From a virus: DNA of 45,226 nt. Positions within the stretch are counted from its first letter, which is position 1, and each line of letters starts with the position of its first letter. A program made the position numbers and the translations under genes. Under the pieces are notes generated by a model, which saw only the letters and a list, made by a program, of their open reading frames with translations, was not told the origin of the DNA and made no database searches. The stretch spans positions 1-45,226 of the IMG/VR virus record IMGVR_UViG_3300035181_001114; one strand, written 5' to 3'. Of the stretch, positions 1 to 45,184 are shown piece by piece.

Positions 1-127
1 TGAAGTAGATTCACTTATTATTGAAAAGCCTCATTTAAATTTATGGTACATTTGTAAACTACCGGGTGTTACTCATTCTGCATAGTGCAAATTCATGCCA
101 CTTTTATTTTGAACAATGAGGAAGTAG
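1..127. repeat. Terminal direct repeat copy 1 (identical to 45100-45226); circular-overlap signature
   Basis: The first 127 nt (tgaagtagattcactt...caatgaggaagtag) recur exactly as the last 127 nt. This copy holds the last 27 codons plus stop (83-85) of the ORF that ends at 45184. Confidence 0.95.
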
Positions 128-8660: not shown

Positions 8661-9217
8661 TAGCACAAATGAGTAGCGCAAGTTTTGGTGCAAATGGTCG
8701 CGTATTGATTGAATTAAGCACAAGCACAATTAATGCTTATACAAATTTAGTTGAGCAATATAGTACATACGGCATCATGTCTGTGCCGCTTCCAAAACAA
8801 TTGGTTAACATTGAAGAGCAATCAGCTACACAAGTGATGATGACGGGTTATAACAATGCTATTACTGATAGCGCATTTAGTATCAGCCCCGGAGAAATTG
8901 CAACATATTCACAAAATTGGTATAACTTTACTGCCAATGCTGGCATTTACATGCAGCCTGTAAGTGCTAGTGATAAAGAAAACGCTATGATGGGCCAAAG
9001 TACAAACGGAGTAATTACCGATATTTTAAATTTATTAGTTGATATCGTTAATTATTTAGGCTCTCACGTACATACTGGCGTACAAACTGGTACAGATAAT
9101 ACAGGCCCGGTATTTGCTACACCTCCCCTACCGGACGATAGCAATGTTGTAAGTGATCAAGGCTACATAAGTGATAATAAAAATCTGGCAATAACTGGCA
9201 CATATACGCCGCATTAA
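8657..9217 (+). CDS. Virion protein, possibly gpV/Mu gp45-like spike
   Basis: 186 aa. SPGEIATYSQNWYNFTANAGIYM and C-terminal GSHVHTGVQTGTDNTGPV recall baseplate spike proteins, but the location is atypical. Confidence 0.25.
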   Translation: MIAQMSSASFGANGRVLIELSTSTINAYTNLVEQYSTYGIMSVPLPKQLVNIEEQSATQVMMTGYNNAITDSAFSISPGEIATYSQNWYNFTANAGIYMQPVSASDKENAMMGQSTNGVITDILNLLVDIVNYLGSHVHTGVQTGTDNTGPVFATPPLPDDSNVVSDQGYISDNKNLAITGTYTPH

Positions 9218-9218
9218 A

Positions 9219-9686
9219 ATGATTTTGCAAGATTTTATTACTGAAATAATGGTTTTTTGTGAAAAAGAAACGCAGAAAATAATTGCTGAATTGCAATGGA
9301 ATAGGTTTGAAAATGATGGGCAATTTAATGATAATGAGCGATGGCAGGGAAATAGCCCCAAGGTTATAAAAGATAAGGGATTTGATATACCGCTGCAAGA
9401 TACCGGGCATTTAAGAAATGAACTTGAAGACCCAGAAAATTGGGATTTAAACCCTAAAGTTGATAAATTAACATTAACTTTAACAATCCCAGATATAGAG
9501 CAGTTTACAGAATCAAAATATGATGTGCTGCAAACTGGTGGCAATGTAGATCCTTATGTCAGCGTTAGGGGAAACAAGATTAATATATCGACAGTGCCAG
9601 CGAGAAATTTTAAAAATTTAAGTGCTGCTGATATGAAATGGATTGAAGATAAATTGATACAGGCTATTATTAGAAAGTTTACATGA
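9219..9686 (+). CDS. Neck/head-tail joining protein (HK97 gp10-like / Mu G-like)
   Basis: 155 aa. The QDTGHLRNEL motif resembles the DTGxLRxS signature of HK97 gp10-family head-tail adaptors. It lies between the head and tail genes. Confidence 0.45.
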   Translation: MILQDFITEIMVFCEKETQKIIAELQWNRFENDGQFNDNERWQGNSPKVIKDKGFDIPLQDTGHLRNELEDPENWDLNPKVDKLTLTLTIPDIEQFTESKYDVLQTGGNVDPYVSVRGNKINISTVPARNFKNLSAADMKWIEDKLIQAIIRKFT

Positions 9687-27474: not shown

Positions 27475-27912
27475 ATGCAACAAGTTTTTCAAATGGGTTT
27501 ATTGGCCTGGTTTTTTTTTAGTTTATATGCTGTATTCAATGACCCTACTTTAAGTAATTCATTAAAAGGAATAGGGGAAATCACGAATTTATTGGCAATT
27601 GGTTACATTACTTCAAATATGTTTTCTCAAAATGAAAGTTTATTATTTTATGAAATTGGTATTTTATTATTAATTTGGTATTTATATTACACTCCGAAAG
27701 ATATAGCTAATCCGGGTTATACACATAAGCAAAAGTTTATTTATGTATTAGTTGATCTTTGCATGATACTTTATTTAATTACAACGCTCAGCGTTGCATT
27801 TAAAACAAAACAAATGGCTCATTTTTACACTCAGATAGATAATTTTAAAGATAATTTTAAATTTAATGTAGCAATAAATTACTTCTTAAGGGGTTTAATA
27901 TGTTTAATTTAA
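27475..27912 (+). CDS. Multi-pass membrane protein (holin-class or other lysis/exclusion role)
   Basis: ATG 27475 follows AAAGG. About 4 hydrophobic segments (LLAWFFFSLYAVF, LLAIGYITSNMF, IGILLLIWYLYY, FIYVLVDLCMILYLITTLSVAF). It is the first gene of the lysis cluster. Confidence 0.4.
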   Translation: MQQVFQMGLLAWFFFSLYAVFNDPTLSNSLKGIGEITNLLAIGYITSNMFSQNESLLFYEIGILLLIWYLYYTPKDIANPGYTHKQKFIYVLVDLCMILYLITTLSVAFKTKQMAHFYTQIDNFKDNFKFNVAINYFLRGLICLI

Positions 27913-28277
27913 GTCCTTACGAAACAATGACGATAATTTTTGGTGCTGGTTTTTTTGTGTGCACATTGGGATATATTAACAAAGAATTTAAAACTTTTAA
28001 CAAAGATTTTGAATATTTTAAAACATTAATTTTACAAAATTTTGAAAAACTTGAAGATAAAGTTGACGAAGTGAAACTGGAGCAAGTTCAGCATCAATCT
28101 ATTACTAACACTAAAGTAGATCAAATTCAGCATGATATTAAAAATATTAGAGGGTTAAATACTGTAAAAAATAATTTGATTGAACGAATTGAGAAATCTA
28201 CGTTAGAAAATCTTTTAAAACAACAAATGTTGGAAGAAAAAATTAATAATATTGAAAGAGAAAGGCGTGCGATATGA
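27900..28277 (+). CDS. Single-pass membrane protein with a coiled-coil ectodomain
   Basis: N-terminal TM segment MTIIFGAGFFVCTLGYI followed by K/E/Q-rich heptad-like sequence. Overlapping start and stop codons on both sides. Confidence 0.4.
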   Translation: MFNLSPYETMTIIFGAGFFVCTLGYINKEFKTFNKDFEYFKTLILQNFEKLEDKVDEVKLEQVQHQSITNTKVDQIQHDIKNIRGLNTVKNNLIERIEKSTLENLLKQQMLEEKINNIERERRAI

Positions 28278-28537
28278 TTATACATACACCAAAATCATTT
28301 TGTCAATATGGTTGGAAACAATTAAGTACGTGGATAGGATTAGTTTTGCTTGCTATGTTTTTTGTATGTATTTTTTATCAAGACTTACATACATTAGTAC
28401 ATAATGTATTAACAAGCAATAGTCTTTCTGAAAAAATTATTACGGGTCTTGGCGGAGCTGTATTTATTGCATTTAATCGGTTTAATGGTAAAAACGATAA
28501 GGATAATTCAAATGATAATCAATCTCCTGCTGAATAA
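28274..28537 (+). CDS. Holin candidate (2 TM, charged C-terminus)
   Basis: 87 aa. TM segments LSTWIGLVLLAMFFVCIFY and IITGLGGAVFIAF, followed by a polar tail NGKNDKDNSNDNQSPAE. It lies immediately upstream of the spanins. Confidence 0.5.
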   Translation: MIIHTPKSFCQYGWKQLSTWIGLVLLAMFFVCIFYQDLHTLVHNVLTSNSLSEKIITGLGGAVFIAFNRFNGKNDKDNSNDNQSPAE

Positions 28538-30642: not shown

Positions 30643-32193
30643 TTATTTTTTTAATTTAATCATATAATTGTTCAATTGTTTATTAATTTGTCCGCGTATT
30701 TTATGTAATGTAGTTTTATTAATGGTATTACAATTACCGCTATCATATACCGTTATTAATTCACCTATTATTTCATCATCAAAACTCACTTGGTCATGAA
30801 GCACATATTCACCATCGATAAAATCAACATTTAAAAAACCTCTAGCAGACTTTTTAGTACCAGAATCAGTTTTTGGCTCTTTAAATATTTCTCGTTTTTC
30901 ACCATTTACAATGCCACAAGTTGATTTTACTGCCATGCCAAAACTATCTCGGGTAGAGTATTGATATGTATAACTTCCAATGCCAAACACAACATTACTG
31001 CTCGCAAAACCTTTCTTCTCAAGTTTATCTAATATAATGTTAGCTCGCTCAAGTGTGATACTGTCGCCATAAATTAAACCAATATGGGTGTCTAAAACTT
31101 TATAGCCTTTTCCGTTAATTGTACCGCCAAAAGTATCCCATAAGCATTGTATGGCTCCTTTCCCTTCTGGAGTATCTGGGTAAAATTCCTCATAATTTCC
31201 ACTTGGCAAGCGTGTTTCTTCTAGTTTGCCGCATATAATATCTACAGGATCGCCGGAATCAGGTCTAATAACCACTTTACCATCTCGTGACATGATTACA
31301 TCTTTTAGTTTTGGTAAATAATCTGTTATAACTTGCCAAAAATCCCAAGTATCACTGACTATTGAAACTATTTTTTTTGGATAAGTTTTGGTTATTAACC
31401 TCTCAAATAATTCTATCTCATTATCTTTGCCATTAAGGCTCATAACGGAATGTTCTGTTGCTGGAACACTACACCCAATGGTAGTGTGTAAATCAGCATT
31501 ATAATAATACTGCAACATAGGAATTGCCGGAATTGTGTCAGTGCCTAAAAAACAAGTTAAATGCGCCATTCCTGACGTTGCGGCATCCATGTGCCCACTC
31601 ATCCCCCTAAAGCTAAAATCATGTGCTTGGAAATCGACTGCGCTTAAATCTGAGCCAGTTTTAACTGCATAGTGAATTAATATCTTTTTATACTCAAAAG
31701 CTATAGTTGCGTTAGTGCATAATTTCCAAATATCTGCCGACATCCATGTTTCGAGAAAATTAGTAAGCCAATAAAATTCCGATAACGTATTGCATATTGT
31801 CAGTATGGGAACTTTCATATTAACACGTGATCCCTCTGGTAAAGCTTTAATATGAATTGGTAAATAACCCAATTTATGGAGCGCCTCAATATGATCGAAT
31901 GTTATTGCATTTTTACCCAATCCGTGTTCAATAATTTGTTTATAATCACTTAAAACCTCATTAAGAGGTAATTTAAAAAAGTTATCCTCAAAACTATCGT
32001 GTAAATTTTTAATAAAATATTGAATTCCAAACACAATCATTTTCCCATCGTAAAAAGGGCTTTGTTTACAAGTTGATAATTTATCGCTCCTAGGTGTTAA
32101 ATTACTGTAAACCAATTCTGTGCCTTCTGGATATTGAAATTTATGTCCAATTTTGTAAAAATCACACATATACATAGGATTTAATTTAATCAT
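30643..32193 (-). CDS. Nicotinamide phosphoribosyltransferase-family enzyme (Nampt/NadV-like; candidate Namat of NARP1)
   Basis: 516 aa with family landmarks CDFYKIGH, HLTCFLGTDT, VPATEHSVM, IRPDSGDP, IYGDSIT and VVFGIGS. The start overlaps the stop of the Prs-like gene (TAATG). Confidence 0.9.
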   Translation of the reverse strand: MIKLNPMYMCDFYKIGHKFQYPEGTELVYSNLTPRSDKLSTCKQSPFYDGKMIVFGIQYFIKNLHDSFEDNFFKLPLNEVLSDYKQIIEHGLGKNAITFDHIEALHKLGYLPIHIKALPEGSRVNMKVPILTICNTLSEFYWLTNFLETWMSADIWKLCTNATIAFEYKKILIHYAVKTGSDLSAVDFQAHDFSFRGMSGHMDAATSGMAHLTCFLGTDTIPAIPMLQYYYNADLHTTIGCSVPATEHSVMSLNGKDNEIELFERLITKTYPKKIVSIVSDTWDFWQVITDYLPKLKDVIMSRDGKVVIRPDSGDPVDIICGKLEETRLPSGNYEEFYPDTPEGKGAIQCLWDTFGGTINGKGYKVLDTHIGLIYGDSITLERANIILDKLEKKGFASSNVVFGIGSYTYQYSTRDSFGMAVKSTCGIVNGEKREIFKEPKTDSGTKKSARGFLNVDFIDGEYVLHDQVSFDDEIIGELITVYDSGNCNTINKTTLHKIRGQINKQLNNYMIKLKK

Positions 32194-33050
32194 TATTCTT
32201 GATCTCCTTCTTGAAATACCACTTGTTCAACTTCTAGGCCTGATATATTATTGTATTTGTTCACAATAAAATTATAACTATCTTTATTAATAATTTTTAA
32301 TTTGTTGATTCCCTCTTCTATTAAGTTATCAAAACCGTAAGTACCAAATTGATGATAAACCATCAGTTCGATTTCAATATTAAGCCTTTCTGAGTGTTCA
32401 AACTCTTTTCTCAATGCTTTTGCGCATTCTACAAATGTACGGTTGCCATCGCCAATATCATCACAAATTAAAAATGGTTTATATAAATCAATTTTATAAG
32501 GCATACGGAATGCGTCCAATTCTAAATGAGGCGTCCCAAATTTATTTCTAACTTTATTAAAAGTTATCATTTTATCATCCGAATAATAATAATGATGTCT
32601 GGCCGATGCATCGGGAAACACAATATTATATTGCGATTGCAATTCCATTAAATTATAGCGGTCTATATTTATATAGTTCTTGCCAAATGCATAATAATTG
32701 TGACAATGTAACGCCTGGGTTCTTACAACATCAAAATTTAAAAAAATGATTTTCGTAAAATCTATAAATGCAATTGATTGTCCGGCCTCAAATACTCGAT
32801 CTTGTCTAGCGTATGGCAAATAAGGTGCATCTAAAATAATTTGAATTCTATCGCCATACGTATGCCTAATTGCCGCCGCTTTTAACATTGGTATCATAAT
32901 ATCTTTTTGCGTGAAGTAATCCCAATGGATATAAACTATTCTGTCATATATGCGTTCTGTTAACGTGATTTCATACTCTCCTGAATTATGTTGTTTTATT
33001 TTAAATATATTTATTTCTTTTGTTAGTTTCAAAAATTCGTTTTCGTTCAT
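32193..33050 (-). CDS. Ribose-phosphate pyrophosphokinase-like enzyme (Prs-like; candidate Adps of NARP1)
   Basis: 285 aa with LPYARQDR, VFPDASA and the PRTase ribose-phosphate loop LICDDIGDGNRTF. ATGA overlap with the upstream ORF. Confidence 0.75.
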   Translation of the reverse strand: MNENEFLKLTKEINIFKIKQHNSGEYEITLTERIYDRIVYIHWDYFTQKDIMIPMLKAAAIRHTYGDRIQIILDAPYLPYARQDRVFEAGQSIAFIDFTKIIFLNFDVVRTQALHCHNYYAFGKNYINIDRYNLMELQSQYNIVFPDASARHHYYYSDDKMITFNKVRNKFGTPHLELDAFRMPYKIDLYKPFLICDDIGDGNRTFVECAKALRKEFEHSERLNIEIELMVYHQFGTYGFDNLIEEGINKLKIINKDSYNFIVNKYNNISGLEVEQVVFQEGDQE

Positions 33051-39980: not shown

Positions 39981-40032
39981 GTTTTTTATTTAAAAAATTA
40001 ACTTTAATGATCGCAATGGTTTATATTTGTTT

Positions 40033-40060
40033 TTGCATTTAAATAAATTTGTGTTATAAT
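40033..40060 (+). promoter_or_regulatory. Rightward early promoter (TTGCAT-16-TGtTATAAT)
   Basis: TTGCAT 40033-40038 and TGTTATAAT 40052-60. It is followed by the perfect palindrome TTAACGTTAA (40067-40076), then the RBS and GTG 40091. Confidence 0.5.
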
Positions 40061-40090: not shown

Positions 40091-40321
40091 GTGAAAATGA
40101 ATAAAACAAAACAAAACATATTGAAAAAATTAAAGATTGGAGAAAATAAAATATTTTTAGGTGTTATTGCAAATAAATTAAAAATAACTAGACCTACTCT
40201 TAATAAATATTTAGCTCAATTAACAGAGGAGGGGTATTTAAATAAAAAGATTAATGCTGGAATAAACGGTGGCACGATGGGAGACGCCAAATACTGTACA
40301 TTGATTGTGAGATTAAAATAA
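40091..40321 (+). CDS. Winged-helix/HTH DNA-binding regulator
   Basis: 76 aa. LGVIANKLKITRPTLNKYLAQLTEEGYLNKK is a typical HTH plus wing. It is the first gene of the rightward early operon, divergent from promoter module B. Confidence 0.6.
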   Translation: MKMNKTKQNILKKLKIGENKIFLGVIANKLKITRPTLNKYLAQLTEEGYLNKKINAGINGGTMGDAKYCTLIVRLK

Positions 40322-40743
40322 TGTCTACAAAATTAGAAAATCCATTTAAAAATTTAGGGGCTAGTATTACAATGAAAGTTTGGCATAAAGGGCATGAAAA
40401 TTGCCAAAAAAAATATGGATACGATAATTGTAAAAAAGATACAATAACGTTTAAAATGCCGGATATACTTGATACTAAAGTTGATGATTTCTGTCAACGG
40501 CACCAAACATATTTTGATAATGAATTACATAGATTTCCATCTGGAAATATCAAATGGATTGGTTGTCCAATCTGTAAAATAAATGATAAAAAATTTAGAG
40601 ATAAAGCCGATTTCATATATGTTATGCAAGAAGCCGGAATGCGCTTAAATCAAGATACAAAAGAATGGTTTATGCCCGGAGAACCCGGAGAAGAAACATT
40701 AGAAAAAGGTCGCTATAAAAGCGTAGGTTTTAAACGTGATTGA
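40321..40743 (+). CDS. Cys/His-containing (possible zinc-binding) protein of unknown function
   Basis: 140 aa with CQRH...(24 aa)...CPIC. The start overlaps the upstream stop (TAATG). Confidence 0.5.
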   Translation: MSTKLENPFKNLGASITMKVWHKGHENCQKKYGYDNCKKDTITFKMPDILDTKVDDFCQRHQTYFDNELHRFPSGNIKWIGCPICKINDKKFRDKADFIYVMQEAGMRLNQDTKEWFMPGEPGEETLEKGRYKSVGFKRD

Positions 40744-40754
40744 AGGATAATTGT

Positions 40755-41672
40755 ATGAACATTGGTAAAAAAAATAATTGGCTAAAATTAAAAGTAGATT
40801 TTTTCAGTTCTCCTGCTGTAAAAAAGTTACGAAAAATTGCAGGTGGTGATAAATATTTAATCATTTATCAAAAATTAATGTTGCTTACAGTTAATACCGA
40901 AGGTCACTACGAATATCAAAAATTAGAGGAAAAAATCGAAGATGAATTGGCTTTAATTTTGGATGAAGAGGTAGATAATATCAAAATGGCGTTAAGTTTT
41001 TTGCGCAGCACAAATTTAATGCAAGATATTGATATTAATACAGTTTTCTTTAATGATGTGCCTAAACTCATTGGTAAATATGACGATTCATCGGAAAGGG
41101 TTGCAAAATATAGGCTTCGCAAAAGGTCAATAGACGAATGTAACGCGTTACAAAATGTTACATGTAACGAATGTAACGGCGATGTAACATGTGAGTGTAA
41201 CGAATGTAACGCTCCTAGAGAAAGAGAAAGAGAAAGAGAAAGAGAAAGAGTAGTACAAGTACAGCGCGTGCGCGCTACTTCGGAAAAACCCGAGCCAACA
41301 AATTTGGACTCACCTGATTACATCAAAAAAATGGCAAATAATAGTTTTGAAAATTGGAAGCAAATTGCAAAAGAACAAAATACAAAATTTACAAACTCAG
41401 AGTGGGACACAATCTATGGTTACATTTTAGCTAAACCATCATTACAACCGCATCAAATACGATCAACAATAATCACTCTCAATAAATGGGCAAATGAGGC
41501 TTTAGACATTGAGGATGCACTACTTACAGGACAAAACTACAGAGCATTAGTTAAGCCTCGACAGCGTATCATGATTGACAAAAAAAATAATCGTCTTTAT
41601 GGCAATTTATTGATTGATCATCGCAATAAACTCATTGAGATTGAAGAGTTTGAGGTAAAACAACAACAGTAA
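40755..41672 (+). CDS. Phage replisome organizer / replication initiation protein
   Basis: ATG 40755 follows GAAGGA. The N-terminus NWLKLKVDFFSSPAVKKLRKIAGGDKYLIIYQKLMLL matches the Phage_rep_org_N pattern (w.kl..dff.d.ki..l....G..y.liY..l). The gene carries an internal iteron array. Confidence 0.6.
   Translation: MNIGKKNNWLKLKVDFFSSPAVKKLRKIAGGDKYLIIYQKLMLLTVNTEGHYEYQKLEEKIEDELALILDEEVDNIKMALSFLRSTNLMQDIDINTVFFNDVPKLIGKYDDSSERVAKYRLRKRSIDECNALQNVTCNECNGDVTCECNECNAPRERERERERERVVQVQRVRATSEKPEPTNLDSPDYIKKMANNSFENWKQIAKEQNTKFTNSEWDTIYGYILAKPSLQPHQIRSTIITLNKWANEALDIEDALLTGQNYRALVKPRQRIMIDKKNNRLYGNLLIDHRNKLIEIEEFEVKQQQ
41139..41210. repeat. Iteron-like array of TGTAAC(G) motifs (candidate origin of replication)
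   Basis: Six direct TGTAAC copies (41139, 41163, 41172, 41183, 41196, 41205) and two inverted GTTACA copies (41147, 41157). This includes the 12-bp palindrome GTTACATGTAAC (41157-41168). Confidence 0.6.
41217..41250. repeat. (AGAGAA)n purine microsatellite
   Basis: agagaaagagaaagagaaagagaaagagaaagag, about 5.5 hexamer units. It encodes RERERERERER. Confidence 0.9.
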
Positions 41673-41685
41673 TTCAAAAAATAAT

Positions 41686-41714
41686 TTGACAAATAGAAAA
41701 TCTCAAGGTATAAT
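41686..41714 (+). promoter_or_regulatory. Perfect-consensus sigma70 promoter (TTGACA-17-TATAAT)
   Basis: TTGACA 41686-41691, a 17-nt spacer and TATAAT 41709-41714, in the 158-bp gap after the replication gene. Confidence 0.7.
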
Positions 41715-41720
41715 GCAGTC

Positions 41721-41813
41721 TGTACTTTGAATTTATGTATCGAAACGGATAAATTGAATGTACGCATTCATCGAAAAACCCCGCTCCGTTTCAATTCTCA
41801 GTGGGGTTTTTTT
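41721..41813 (+). ncRNA. Candidate ~93-nt structured leader RNA / sRNA ending at an intrinsic terminator
   Basis: The RNA runs from the predicted TSS (~41721) to the U-tract at 41813. It contains hairpin UGAAUG-UACG-CAUUCA (41755-41770), pairing of 41742-49 with 41785-92, and a terminator hairpin. No ORF. Confidence 0.45.
41778..41813 (+). terminator. Rho-independent terminator
   Basis: ACCCCGCU (41778-85) pairs with AGUGGGGU (41800-07), with one G-U pair and a 14-nt loop. It is followed by U7 (41807-13) and preceded by A5. Confidence 0.55.
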
Positions 41814-41830
41814 ATTTAAAAAGGATAATC

Positions 41831-42106
41831 ATGCAAATATCAGAAATTTTAACAGTTAACGAAACAACAATACCAAATTTGGTTTTTACAAAAATAATTT
41901 TGGCCGATAACAGACTCGTGATCAAAGTTACTCACGGTGAAGATTCGCAATTAACACAATCTGGTGGTGGAATGGCTAGGTTTGTATTAGACCAACAGCC
42001 CGCAGCAGCTCCGAGAGATTTAACACAAGAAGAATTACAGCAAATTGCTAAAGATGTAGCCGCTGAAGCACAACCAGAGCAAACAGCTTCAGAAAATCAA
42101 GCGTAG
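41831..42106 (+). CDS. Hypothetical protein (first gene after the leader terminator)
   Basis: ATG 41831 follows AAAGGA (the track start at 41801 lies inside the terminator). 92 aa. Confidence 0.55.
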   Translation: MQISEILTVNETTIPNLVFTKIILADNRLVIKVTHGEDSQLTQSGGGMARFVLDQQPAAAPRDLTQEELQQIAKDVAAEAQPEQTASENQA

Positions 42107-42115
42107 GCAGTTAAA

Positions 42116-42493
42116 ATGATGATTTTGTGTGATCTGCATGGCACTTTATTAAACGAAAACGAACAAATTAATGATGTTGTTGCTGATTGTTTAAGAGGTT
42201 TTGCATACAGAAAATACGATATTTGTTTGATTACTGCTGCAAATTTACATCCACTAGATAAAGCAAAAATAGAAAATTTGTTAAAAGTTGCTTGCCTTCC
42301 GTGGGATAATATTTATTCACCTAATGAAGAGAGTAAAGATGATGTTAAAACTAAGGAAACTTTACTGAATCAAATCATAAAATCCTATGGCGACCCTATA
42401 TCTTTAGCAATTGATAACAGAAAAGATGTATGTAAAATGTATCGTAAACACAGGATTGATACTATGCGGTTTAAAGAATCTGATTATGATTGA
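42116..42493 (+). CDS. HAD-fold-like protein with an atypical motif I (DLHGTL)
   Basis: MILCDLHGTL resembles HAD motif I (DxDGTL) with His in place of the second Asp. ICLITAAN and AIDNRKD are plausible motifs II and IV. Weak assignment. Confidence 0.3.
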   Translation: MMILCDLHGTLLNENEQINDVVADCLRGFAYRKYDICLITAANLHPLDKAKIENLLKVACLPWDNIYSPNEESKDDVKTKETLLNQIIKSYGDPISLAIDNRKDVCKMYRKHRIDTMRFKESDYD

Positions 42494-42885
42494 AAACATT
42501 GAGATAGGGGATTAAGCAAAATCCGCGTGATCTAACGCAAGATGGTTTCATTAAGGCGATCAAATCACTTGAAGACTTTCCAGAAATGTTGGAAGTTAGA
42601 ACTTTAGTAGTTGTACCTGTAGTAATTGGCGGCAATCAACGTTTAAGAGCATTAAAGCATTTTGGGTATTATTCTAAGGTGCCATGCTGGGATACCGAAT
42701 TATTACTTGATTGGGGTATGGATTTACCAGTTAATTTAAATGCATTAGATATTGAAGATACTGCCGTTGTTAATAAAGATTCAATATTTGGGATTAAAAT
42801 TGAAACAGAAAATAAAATGAATTTTGATAGCATAAAAAAAGAACTAGACAGATTAAAAATTTCTTATACTGAGTTTGAAAAATAA
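42486..42885 (+). pseudogene. ParB-like nuclease-domain gene interrupted by a +1 frame break at a G4 run
   Basis: ATG 42486 gives MIENIEIGD then a stop at 42513. The next frame reads IKQNPRDLTQDGFIKAIKSLEDFPEMLEVRTLVV..VIGGNQRLRALKHFGY. Removing one G of GGGG (42507-42510) joins them into a typical ParB-N start. Confidence 0.6.
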
Positions 42886-43203
42886 ATGTATATTACACGT
42901 TCTCCTAATTTAGTTTATATTCCGCTTGATGTGTTTAATAAAATTAGAACAAACACATTAATAAAAATTATTTTTATTGGTAAAGAAAATCAACAAATAT
43001 CTTTAGATTTATTAAAGGGCGTAGTAGTAACCGATCAAATAAAATCTAAACCTAAAATGTTTCCGGTATCAAAAAGAATTGGTAACGGTTTAATTGAGCA
43101 AATAATACATGGAACATTGAACCAATTCAAAATTGGTAATTTACTTATAAAACCCATTTCAGAATTATTTAAGGAGCCCGCTGATGAAGAAAGTAAAATT
43201 TAA
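42886..43203 (+). CDS. Hypothetical protein
   Basis: 105 aa. The start abuts the upstream stop (TAAATG). Confidence 0.5.
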   Translation: MYITRSPNLVYIPLDVFNKIRTNTLIKIIFIGKENQQISLDLLKGVVVTDQIKSKPKMFPVSKRIGNGLIEQIIHGTLNQFKIGNLLIKPISELFKEPADEESKI

Positions 43204-43591
43204 TGTAACCACATCCGTTCATATGATACCCGATGAAGTTTATCAAGATTTTAAAGATAAAATGTTAGAAATGAAATTTAAATCATTTAAAGACTATCAG
43301 CAACGCTTATTAGCGGGATCTGAATTTGAGATGAAAGATGTTCGCATTGGTGACATAGTAGAAGTGCCAGATTGGTATTTTGAAGCTCATAAAAACGATA
43401 TGCTAACGACTAGTGTGTTTATCGAAAATTATAAAGACAAAATGGGGCGTCCGCATTCTTTTGATATGCAAGATGCTATCAAGCATGGTCATGTTACAGA
43501 AGATACTAAACCTACTCGTCAAATCTCTAGATTTACAATCATAGAAGAGCCAGCATTAACTCATAAGAAAAGCACACAAAGAGCTGAATAA
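43184..43591 (+). CDS. Hypothetical protein
   Basis: 135 aa with an AAGGAG RBS. It overlaps the upstream gene by 20 nt. Confidence 0.5.
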   Translation: MKKVKFNVTTSVHMIPDEVYQDFKDKMLEMKFKSFKDYQQRLLAGSEFEMKDVRIGDIVEVPDWYFEAHKNDMLTTSVFIENYKDKMGRPHSFDMQDAIKHGHVTEDTKPTRQISRFTIIEEPALTHKKSTQRAE

Positions 43592-43766
43592 TGGGTAAAT
43601 ATTTATCAATCATCTGAAAAGTTGAAAAGTTATTAGCTATACAAATTAAAAAATTGTTTTAATAGTGAATTAGAAAAATTAAATTTAATAAAAGAAATTT
43701 ATATTTATTGCGTCAAAATTTTATTGAATCTCAATTAGGCTGTACTTTCAAAAGGATTATCATTTA

Positions 43767-44288
43767 ATGGCTTACCCCTTAAAAATTTGGAAAGAAGCCC
43801 AAGCGTTATTTGAGATGGGGGAAAGTTGTGCGGAAGTGTCAAAAAAAGTCAAAATACCTCGCACCGCGATTGTAATGAGAGCAAAAAAAGAGCACTGGGA
43901 TAATAAAAAATTGACAACTATTGTGGCTGAAAAGGCTGAGGCTCTAACGATGTTACATAATGTGCAAGAAAAAATTGACAAAATTGATGAAAAGGCGCAG
44001 GCATTAGTTAAAAATAAAGTTGATGAAATTTTACAGTTAAATAATATTGTTGATAATTTCATTAAAGACGCTGTTAATTTAAATATGAAGAATCTCAGAG
44101 CTACTTTAAATGAGCCGGACGATTTTAAACGTATTATTATGGCTAATAAAATGAAGGCTACTATGCCAGATTTAGCTTCAATTGCAGGCAATAGACCTTC
44201 TATAAAAGCGCCTAACGATGAGGATGACGAAGAGAAAAGCGAAGGCATACATTTTTATTTACCAGATAACGGAAGGGGTAAGAAATGA
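43767..44288 (+). CDS. Putative terminase small subunit (HTH N-terminus)
   Basis: 173 aa. IWKEAQALFEMGESCAEVSKKVKIPRTAIVMRAKKEHW is an HTH typical of small terminases, followed by a coiled-coil middle and an acidic tail. It lies upstream of terL across the junction, with one gene between them. Confidence 0.4.
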   Translation: MAYPLKIWKEAQALFEMGESCAEVSKKVKIPRTAIVMRAKKEHWDNKKLTTIVAEKAEALTMLHNVQEKIDKIDEKAQALVKNKVDEILQLNNIVDNFIKDAVNLNMKNLRATLNEPDDFKRIIMANKMKATMPDLASIAGNRPSIKAPNDEDDEEKSEGIHFYLPDNGRGKK

Positions 44289-45184
44289 ACATATTACAAG
44301 AGATTAGAAAATTAACAAACGAATGTTTGGTGCTTTTAGAAAAAAATAATAAGCAAAAATTTAAAAAAGGCGATCAAGTTAAAATTAAAGGCCCTACAAT
44401 CGGCAAGAGTAATGAGCGTTACGATGGAATAATTGGAACAGTTACAGAAAATAAGGTTAACTCATTTGGAAATTTAATAGTGGGTGTTGAAATTACAATT
44501 GCCACATTTATTAATTTTGGTTTTAGTGATGTAAGACATACAGAGAGTGAAACAATGATCCAATATTTTTCCCCAGATGCTTTAGAGTTATTTGAAGCAA
44601 CTGATAAACCAGAACTTAACTTTAAGAGGGGTGACAAAGTAAAGATTTTGAAGGATCCTTATCAAAATCATATCAACTATAAAGTAGGCGATAAGGTAGA
44701 AATACTGTCGGATGCTTTAATAAAAGAATTAGAAACCGTTTGCAGCAGTGGTGTAATAAAAAGCGCGGTTGGAAAAATTGGGGTGATTGAATCTTTCTCA
44801 GATTCAGGAGTGAGAGTTAAAGATTTACCACCTGAATGTGTGAGTTATTTTTGCCCAACGTGGTTTTATAAATTTGACCAAGTGAAACTTGTTGATTCAG
44901 AAATTGACACATCAGGGCAATCAGAACGTAAGAGCAACGCTAAAAGAATGGTAAATGAACTATCAAAAACCAAAGAAATCAAATATTTCGATTTTGCCAA
45001 AGCCTTGAAATATGCGAAAAAAGGATATACGATTGCTGATAAAGACGATGAAAATAACAAATTTTGGTATGAAGATAAAGTATATTACAATTCAAATGGT
45101 GAAGTAGATTCACTTATTATTGAAAAGCCTCATTTAAATTTATGGTACATTTGTAAACTACCGGGTGTTACTCATTCTGCATAG
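44285..45184 (+). CDS. Multi-domain protein: repeated KxGDxVKI SH3/KOW-like modules plus a C-terminal DUF2829-like segment
   Basis: 299 aa. FKKGDQVKIKG, FKRGDKVKILKD and KVGDKVEILSD recur. C-terminal FDFAKALKYAKKGYTIADKD loosely resembles the DUF2829 start (F.eAl.alk.Gk.v.R). The ORF ends inside the terminal repeat. Confidence 0.5.
   Translation: MNILQEIRKLTNECLVLLEKNNKQKFKKGDQVKIKGPTIGKSNERYDGIIGTVTENKVNSFGNLIVGVEITIATFINFGFSDVRHTESETMIQYFSPDALELFEATDKPELNFKRGDKVKILKDPYQNHINYKVGDKVEILSDALIKELETVCSSGVIKSAVGKIGVIESFSDSGVRVKDLPPECVSYFCPTWFYKFDQVKLVDSEIDTSGQSERKSNAKRMVNELSKTKEIKYFDFAKALKYAKKGYTIADKDDENNKFWYEDKVYYNSNGEVDSLIIEKPHLNLWYICKLPGVTHSA

Follow-up and report, generated by a model that had tools for sequence, protein, structure and literature searches.

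In the 45,226-nt viral record IMGVR_UViG_3300035181_001114 from IMG/VR (positions 1 to 45,226, referred to as the window), a perfect consensus sigma-70-type promoter is followed by a structured leader RNA of about 93 nt that ends in an intrinsic terminator, here called T, at the entrance of a 33-kb block of packaging, head, tail and lysis genes. P1, the first hairpin of this RNA, carries a loop complementary to that of T. Both P1 and this long-range helix covary between related phages, the arrangement recurs with unrelated sequence in a second lineage, and it is absent from 69 control cassettes. Since there is selection on the RNA helices, and especially on a terminator-loop contact that is missing from ordinary cassettes, we favour a gate that acts in cis at the head of the rightward operon, one in which RNA structure would decide whether the terminator is used; we give this interpretation roughly an even chance of being correct. 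The initial annotation of this DNA, made from the sequence alone, had singled out the promoter as the best sigma-70 match and had described a structured RNA of ~93 nt and a terminator hairpin with U7; all three hold up in the analysis reported here. Coordinates are collected in Table 1.

Promoter, leader RNA and terminator

Homologues of the 91-aa protein encoded directly behind T form only four clusters among 5.8 billion proteins, and the RNA element lies beside the gene wherever upstream DNA is available. The copies comprise identical ones (L126-128), a 46.8-kb IMG/VR contig that is ~80% identical over the element (L001/L088), a variant resembling it (L124/L125) and a truncated contig that keeps the 3' arm of T (L123). 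Exact-pattern scans of IMG/VR, JGI metagenomes and GTDB genomes for further relatives of the RNA returned chance matches only, as checked by BLAST.

The promoter agrees with the consensus at 12 of 12 hexamer positions. The window holds two such matches with a spacer of 16-18 nt, compared with 0.11 per genome in dinucleotide shuffles, and on the + strand it is the only one, no other site there reaching 11/12. L001 and L124 retain both hexamers at a spacing of 17 nt, with roughly half of the bases in between changed, and across the relatives the DNA 5' of the -35 hexamer differs throughout. Hexamers and spacing that persist while the spacer drifts are the signature of a promoter in use; judged from its sequence, the promoter is near-certainly functional, and transcription is predicted to start near 41721-41722.

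Table 1. Features of the element and its flanking genes (window positions).
Feature	Coordinates	Strand	Details	Basis
Replisome organizer gene	40740-41672	+		Pfam PF09681 (E=4e-18), PHROG 5968, list of open reading frames (ORFs)
Sigma-70-type promoter	41686-41714	+	-35 TTGACA 41686-91; 17-nt spacer; -10 TATAAT 41709-14; A/T-rich tract just 5'	12/12 match
Hairpin P1	41722-41763	+	arms 41722-36 / 41749-63; 14 pairs, two internal mismatches; 12-nt apical loop 41737-48	minimum free energy (MFE) fold, RNAalifold
Long-range helix, 5' strand	41737-41749	+	core GAAACGG 41742-48; in P1 loop, abuts P1 3' arm	pairs with 41785-97
UACG hairpin	41755-41770	+	UGAAUG-UACG-CAUUCA, from the initial annotation; alternative to P1 3' arm	sequence, nascent-RNA MFE
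Intrinsic terminator T	41773-41813	+	5' arm 41773-85; 14-nt loop 41786-99; 3' arm 41800-12; U7 41807-13	sequence, fold, scan
Long-range helix, 3' strand	41785-41797	+	core CCGUUUC 41786-92; 5' part of T loop, abuts T 5' arm	covariation
Shine-Dalgarno (SD) sequence AAAGGA and ATG	41820-41833	+	ATG 18 nt past U-tract	sequence
First gene behind T	41831-42106	+	91 aa, without known family	ORF list, Pfam, PHROGs

The terminator (AAAAACCCCGCU, a 14-nt loop, AGUGGGGUUUUU) begins ~60 nt past the -10 hexamer. Its stem of -16.3 kcal/mol comprises 13 bp, including 5 G-C pairs, and runs into U7, in line with what is expected of intrinsic terminators (a G+C-rich stem and a U-tract of at least 5 nt). A scan that permits larger loops finds no other strong + strand terminator in the 45 kb; the standard terminator scan is restricted to loops of 3-8 nt and so missed T. 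A loop of 14 nt is indeed atypical, as 54 of the 69 control terminators described below have loops of 3-7 nt. T is kept in L001, L124 and L123, and a G-U pair in its stem makes the terminator specific to the + strand. The close spacing to the ribosome binding site and ATG, as first annotated, stands as well, with an equivalent adjacency in L001, L124, L123 and L149, the contig from the second lineage; the distance from U-tract to ATG is 18-23 nt across all of them. In the window this leaves no room for a separate promoter. Any transcription of 41831 onward must therefore pass T, which means that T acts in cis on the operon.

The fold of the leader is more stable than expected from its composition. 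RNA 41721-41815 (95 nt) has an MFE of -26.8 kcal/mol (z = -3.99), matched by none of 200 shuffles, and the opposite strand gives z = -1.5. Its 5' hairpin, P1, did not figure in the initial description of the RNA. In L001 and L124 it carries two double-compensatory pairs (A-U to G-C and U-A to C-G) and a change from U-A to U-G. The long-range helix of 8 bp that had been described is genuine. It has a 7-nt core and joins the apical loop of P1 to the loop of T, and the check for covariation that had been suggested yields three double-compensatory pairs (RNA positions 17-77, 20-74 and 28-66), in addition to the two in P1. When the helix is lengthened to take in the entire P1 loop (RNA positions 17-29 with 65-77), 89.7% of the cells are paired over 13 columns. 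Sliding the 3' partners by 1-3 columns lowers pairing from 99% to 30-57%, and the compensatory pairs are gone.

These structures were also tested as predictions, in that the pairs of P1, T and the long-range helix were predicted from the window alone and then confronted with the substitutions of L001. The two sequences differ by 20 substitutions over 93 nt, and 33/33 predicted pairs are intact, whereas 20 substitutions placed at random leave 22.9 +/- 2.1 pairs intact (P ~1e-5 for the observed number). Changes fall at 11 of the 27 unpaired positions versus 9 of the 66 paired ones, and all nine paired changes keep the pair, either by compensation or as a wobble G-U. Owing to the G-U pairs in T and in the L001 helices, the structure is specific to RNA of the + strand, which argues against a purely DNA-level palindrome; operators of this kind are consequently disfavoured as an explanation of P1 and the long-range helix, the TTGAAT repeats excepted.

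The initial annotation had posed the question of whether the long-range helix and the terminator form a pseudoknot or compete with each other. The question was apt, for both the P1 + T fold and folds with the long-range helix are predicted. At a nascent length of 72-79 nt, with the T loop out and the 3' arm not yet, the MFE structure of the window and of L001 is the long-range helix enclosing a small hairpin. For the full-length RNA, P1 + T is computed at -25.3 kcal/mol versus -11.5 kcal/mol for the alternative fold. With P1 closed, the long-range helix is possible only as a loop-loop contact of 7-9 bp (~-9.5 kcal/mol); with P1 open, the 13-column helix leaves 2 nt to span, so that the terminator would probably be sterically excluded. 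The UACG hairpin, put forward earlier as a UNCG-type element of the RNA, is present as a sequence, invariant across all relatives and part of the MFE fold at 72-79 nt, but it excludes P1 and has P=0.005 in the full-length ensemble. The exceptional stability of UNCG loops needs a C-G closing context, and this hairpin closes with G-C.

Recurrence in a second lineage and comparison with control cassettes

The predicted contact between a conserved loop and a terminator loop, recurring with unrelated sequence in a second lineage, matches no Rfam family. The Rfam check that had been suggested gave no gathering-threshold match in Rfam 15 for the whole window or for L149; the best sub-threshold hits were Arrc14 for the window (20.9 vs 99 bits) and Yfr10 for L149 (28.2 vs 43 bits), both largely driven by the terminator. 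The more distant replisome-organizer relatives L129-133, L148 and L150-152 have different intergenic DNA without the element. Four of these loci, 3' of the replisome-organizer gene, have short motifs in common (CTAG..., and TATGTTTAA ~15 nt before the SD; L129:5895-6006, L133:2435-2518, L148:3937-4084, L151:2416-2580), which may represent a different regulatory element at an equivalent genomic position.

A covariance model that encodes P1 and T only and leaves the loops unpaired was searched against 742 kb of retrieved loci, where it picked up the family plus one weak match, L149:2464-2552 (20.2 bits, E = 0.37). L149 is a 46-kb Logan contig with a replisome organizer that is 58% identical over the N-terminal domain and with a HAD/PNKP phosphatase gene. 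The sequence of its element is unrelated to that of the window and the architecture is the same: a promoter with an extended -10 (TGATATAAT), a 13-bp hairpin with the loop AGGUGAGAGC, a terminator (AAGCCUCUCC [GCUCUCACAAUU] GGAGGGGUUU) with a 12-nt loop and a U7 run that starts within the 3' arm, and an SD and ATG 23 nt past the U-tract. The 3' eight nucleotides of loop 1 match the 5' eight of loop 2 perfectly over 8 bp (GUGAGAGC/GCUCUCAC), in the same register as in the window; such a match is expected by chance with a probability of 1.5e-5 in a fixed register and 2e-4 in any register. The loop pair is computed at -14 kcal/mol, and the MFE structure of the nascent RNA is again a long-range helix enclosing a small hairpin. 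In L149 the cassette is flanked by a small early gene and the replication genes and does not precede late genes, and no relatives of the L149 element were found.

In order to place these features against ordinary transcription units, IMG/VR was scanned for the pattern TTGACA-16..18-TATAAT-70..100-GGGTTTTTT. At least 117 cassettes in at least 64 sequence clusters (L153-L269) were obtained, so that a consensus promoter followed by a terminator ~100 nt later is evidently common in phages. Sixty-nine cassettes with a clean terminator stem, among the matches listed, were used as controls. The longest complement between terminator loop and leader was 6 nt in one of them and 5 nt in eight, and the remaining 60 had none, as compared with 7 nt in the window, 9 nt in L001 and 8 nt in L149. 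A co-directional gene start within 150 nt was lacking in most controls. Across 1.35 Mb of mixed phage loci, a large-loop terminator with an upstream complement of at least 7 nt was present only in the family, in L149 and in L085.

We propose a class made up of a promoter, a 13-14-bp hairpin (loop of 10-12 nt), a terminator (loop of 12-14 nt), a Watson-Crick match of 7 bp or more that joins the 3' portion of the first loop to the 5' portion of the second, and an SD and ATG within ~25 nt. This combination is found in the window, L001/L088, L124/L125 and L149, and in 0/69 control cassettes. L085 was considered as a further member and set aside. In this lambdoid-like contig (2938-3073, - strand) a hairpin between a NinI-like phosphatase gene and ninG has a loop, GGACUGAA, complementary to 8/9 bases of the next terminator loop; the match is not kept in the relatives L271 and L275 and may be coincidence. 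Most of the loci L153-L269 have no gene directly downstream, and they amount to a large and so far unused pool of candidate small RNAs (sRNAs) from phages.

Proposed mechanism and competing explanations

According to the mechanism we favour, a constitutive sigma-70 promoter of maximal strength would fire into the 93-nt leader. By default, P1 and T would fold, transcription would stop and an abundant RNA of ~93 nt would be released; T would also halt transcripts arriving from the early-right operon. The regulated feature would be the complementarity of 7-9 nt that the P1 loop shares with the oversized loop of T. A loop-loop contact, either kissing or pseudoknotted, might organise the terminator fold; alternatively, with P1 open, the long-range helix might enclose the small hairpin in the nascent RNA and thereby delay or block T. 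Read-through into the 33-kb block would follow when this balance is shifted by a phage or host factor, or by the accumulated RNA itself.

A number of points weigh against such a gate. We infer the start site, actual termination and every switching step from the sequence. Only two diverged sequence variants of the element plus one analogue are at hand, so each compensatory pair amounts to a single evolutionary event. In the computed energies P1 + T is strongly favoured at equilibrium, and the alternative fold would matter only kinetically. The loop-loop helix overlaps the T stem by 1 nt in the window and does not sequester it, so the effect of the contact on termination could be positive, negative or nil. 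No regulator was identified among the early proteins with Pfam, PHROGs and NCBIfam. The related phage L129 drives its terminase operon from a similar consensus promoter (9291-9319, + strand; ATTTGACAAAT context common to the window promoter; 39 nt ahead of an Sf6-type small terminase gene) and has neither leader nor terminator there. Finally, expression of the downstream genes would be accounted for without a switch if the promoter is strong and T is simply leaky.

The best-known precedent for the layout is lambda PR'-tR' (6S RNA) with Q, and likewise phages 21, 82 and P22, where a strong constitutive promoter is followed by a near terminator and a long packaging, head, tail and lysis operon, with a short terminated RNA as the default product. 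The initial annotation had read the element in this way. By analogy, a phage DNA-binding protein would load on RNA polymerase at a promoter-proximal pause set by a -10-like, sigma-dependent sequence, the modified polymerase would read through T and all downstream terminators, and the terminated "6S-like" RNA would be functionless. The architectural part of this proposal stands (strong constitutive promoter, short predicted transcript, strong terminator within ~200 nt, long late operon; also kept in L001 and L124), and a TAC(T/A)TT motif at ~+3 to +8 keeps T1, A2 and T6 of a -10 hexamer in both variants. The proposed pause motif, however, is not conserved: TATGTA (41734-41739) reads UGCAUU in L001 and lies inside P1. 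Conservation is lowest in the upstream DNA and in the promoter spacer, which in lambda is the site of the Q-binding element. The leader helices are under a strong selection that Q control does not predict. The element lies behind a replication gene and not behind a Q gene, and its L149 analogue precedes replication genes. The early and neighbouring proteins have no match to Q, N or other antiterminators in Pfam, PHROGs and NCBIfam, and no structural analogue of Q was found. Q proteins comprise several unrelated families, so a missing homologue is weak evidence on this point. The two regulator candidates named earlier fare no better, since the winged helix-turn-helix protein (40091) has no counterpart in L001/L088, where the RNA element is conserved, and the family of the Cys/His protein (40321) accompanies the replisome organizer in L129 and L133 as well, where the RNA element is missing. 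On balance, we regard Q-type control as unlikely.

The Cys/His protein rather looks like a replication partner, because it stands beside the replisome organizer in phages that have no such RNA. Its genes (window 40321-40743, L129:4630-5004, L133:1146-1523) always lie directly upstream of, and overlap, the replisome-organizer gene. The family counts 28 representatives among 1.8 billion proteins and has an invariant C-x2-H...W-x-G-C-P-x-C signature. An AlphaFold model built with two sequences had a predicted local distance difference test score (pLDDT) of 45, and one built with 28 remote homologues reached 85; the latter had no structural match at E<=0.001 in the PDB (Q proteins included) or BFVD. 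Pfam and PDB profile searches with the protein were empty, and a scan of genome collections gave no prophage copies.

A trans-acting function of the released RNA is another explanation, which we rate as improbable but somewhat less so than Q-type control. The 93-nt RNA would act as a stand-alone sRNA that uses its exposed loops or its linker to pair with host or phage mRNAs, and the downstream genes would be served by leakage through T or by read-through from upstream. A consensus promoter, a compact stable fold and a Rho-independent terminator are the standard anatomy of an sRNA gene, units of this kind are common in phage contigs, as the at least 117 cassettes in at least 64 clusters illustrate, and terminator loops can serve as pairing or kissing sites, as in OxyS-fhlA and in SdsR, RseX and ArrS (PMC11979758). 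Those sRNAs pair in trans, whereas the partner in the window is an upstream loop of the same RNA. The best seed candidates are precisely the two loops, and these are complementary to each other and covary, which points to selection on intramolecular (or self) pairing. No convincing target emerged within the phage genome, where base composition swamped the duplex-energy scan and left it uninformative, and exact complements were at chance level, the longest being one 12-mer where ~0.4 are expected. Moreover, the co-directional gene 18-23 nt past the U-tract in all members, unlike most controls, means that T necessarily acts on the transcription of that gene.

Self-pairing could also take place between molecules, and a self-titrating, protein-free RNA switch might thus operate, in which accumulated RNA kisses the loops of the nascent leader and alters termination, as a timer or as negative feedback or immunity. 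Its logic would resemble the RNA immunity of phage P4 (CI RNA) or antisense-RNA attenuation in plasmids. We hold this to be a distant prospect. It is equally far from probable, in our estimation, that kissing in trans disturbs the contact between P1 loop and T loop, flips termination to read-through and opens the 33-kb operon; with the opposite sign the outcome would be RNA-based immunity. The loops are mutually complementary, so that any molecule can pair with another, and end-to-end coaxial kissing should be sterically easier between molecules than within one. A promoter of maximal strength, the lack of an identifiable protein regulator and the recurrence of the design in L149, where the 8-bp loop pair of -14 kcal/mol is stronger, are in keeping with this idea. 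The action of a short terminated isoform on a read-through isoform, as described for IsrK, offers a precedent (PMC4825925). Nevertheless, the scheme is purely inferential and nothing indicates the sign of the effect; in addition, the P1 and T stems are of similar length (14/13 pairs in the window, 13/10 in L149), which would suit a side-by-side contact within one molecule.

The put RNA of HK022 (~70 nt, two stem-loops) suggests yet another possibility, namely that the folded nascent RNA binds RNA polymerase and makes it resistant to termination without a protein (PMC9378689). The putL/putR sites resemble the element of the window in that a strong phage promoter is directly followed by an RNA of similar size with two hairpins, and in the lack of an evident phage antitermination protein (PMC9378689). 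Yet put, whose stem-loops bind the beta' zinc-binding domain of RNA polymerase and confer processive antitermination, is not a terminator and has no loop-loop pairing, whereas the second stem-loop in the window is a canonical terminator with U7, which separates it from put RNAs. Sequence similarity to put is lacking, and the element resembles no known RNA family in sequence or model, put-like RNAs in Rfam presumably included; moreover, a put-like RNA would render its own terminator pointless unless folding were regulated. We consider this explanation very improbable.

Promoter-proximal terminators that gate late genes are classical, and to our knowledge all understood cases use a protein (Q, N) or a polymerase-binding RNA (put). 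Short complementary leader segments also decide terminator use in the P4 CI RNA (seqA/B/C), in c4 of phages P1 and P7 and in the antisense attenuation of plasmids pT181 and pIP501, with initial loop-loop contacts. These systems share with the window element a constitutive promoter, a leader terminator and short complementary segments. They differ in that their regulator is separately processed or antisense and its targets lie outside the terminator loop, while in the window both partners belong to one 93-nt sense transcript and one of them is the terminator loop. The C4 antisense RNA family of Rfam is presumably covered by the no-match result. Two mutually complementary loops that covary between related phages are known as well from the phi29 pRNA, whose loops pair between molecules to form a ring on a terminase-less packaging motor (PMC2582624); the phage of the window has an ordinary large terminase, and its RNA ends in a terminator ahead of a gene.

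If the loop contact of the proposed gate does tune termination, it would constitute a new and very compact control of an intrinsic terminator. The device occupies 130 bp without an identifiable protein part and, if true, would be easy to test and reusable in synthetic circuits. Should the contact not tune termination, the element would still represent an undescribed family of structured phage RNAs made from the strongest promoter of the genome.

Genomic surroundings of the element

The replisome organizer gene lies upstream of the promoter and is co-directional, so transcripts from the divergent early-right promoter region (~40032-40060) would also meet T. Behind T, the genes run uninterrupted on the + strand from 41831 across the junction of the record, as had been annotated: the ORFs of the window form one array (41831-45184 plus 176-29802) that encodes small and large terminase, structural proteins and an M15 peptidase endolysin. 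Within this array an AT-rich gap of 176 nt (43591-43767) precedes the small-terminase-like gene. The orthologues in L001 (6624-7034 and 7040-7540) are merely 5 nt apart, so the gap is no conserved promoter region, which fits a single transcription unit leading from the promoter of the element into the packaging genes. A leader peptide encoded by the ORF 41758-41859 was rejected, as it has only 13 codons in L001 and no good SD.

No integrase or repressor was recognised across the genome, and similarity of the terminase, endolysin and RecT pointed to scattered, uninformative hosts. The second 12/12 promoter of the window, TTGACA-18-TATAAT on the - strand (28306-28277), is located in the putative lysis cassette, overlapping the start of the + ORF 28274-28537 and pointing antisense into the ORF 27900-28277; it could be an antisense promoter or chance. 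In L129, two perfect consensus promoters are arranged divergently (9148-9177 on the - strand, 9291-9319 on the + strand). The motif CTGTACWTT occurs four times in the window (35254, 40294, 41720 and 43740), all on the + strand, where 1.06 are expected; one copy coincides with the predicted transcript start of the element and another lies ~25 nt 5' of the small-terminase ATG.

Inside the replisome-organizer gene, tandem repeats (41134-41250) consist of a 33-nt unit repeated 2.4 times, followed by 5.7 copies of AGAGAA that encode an (ER)n run; located ~450 nt upstream of the promoter, they are likely an origin or iteron region. In the leftward early block (30643-33050, - strand), a NAMPT-like gene of the NAPRTase family stands beside a ribose-phosphate-pyrophosphokinase-like gene, and the two form a nicotinamide adenine dinucleotide (NAD)-salvage pair.

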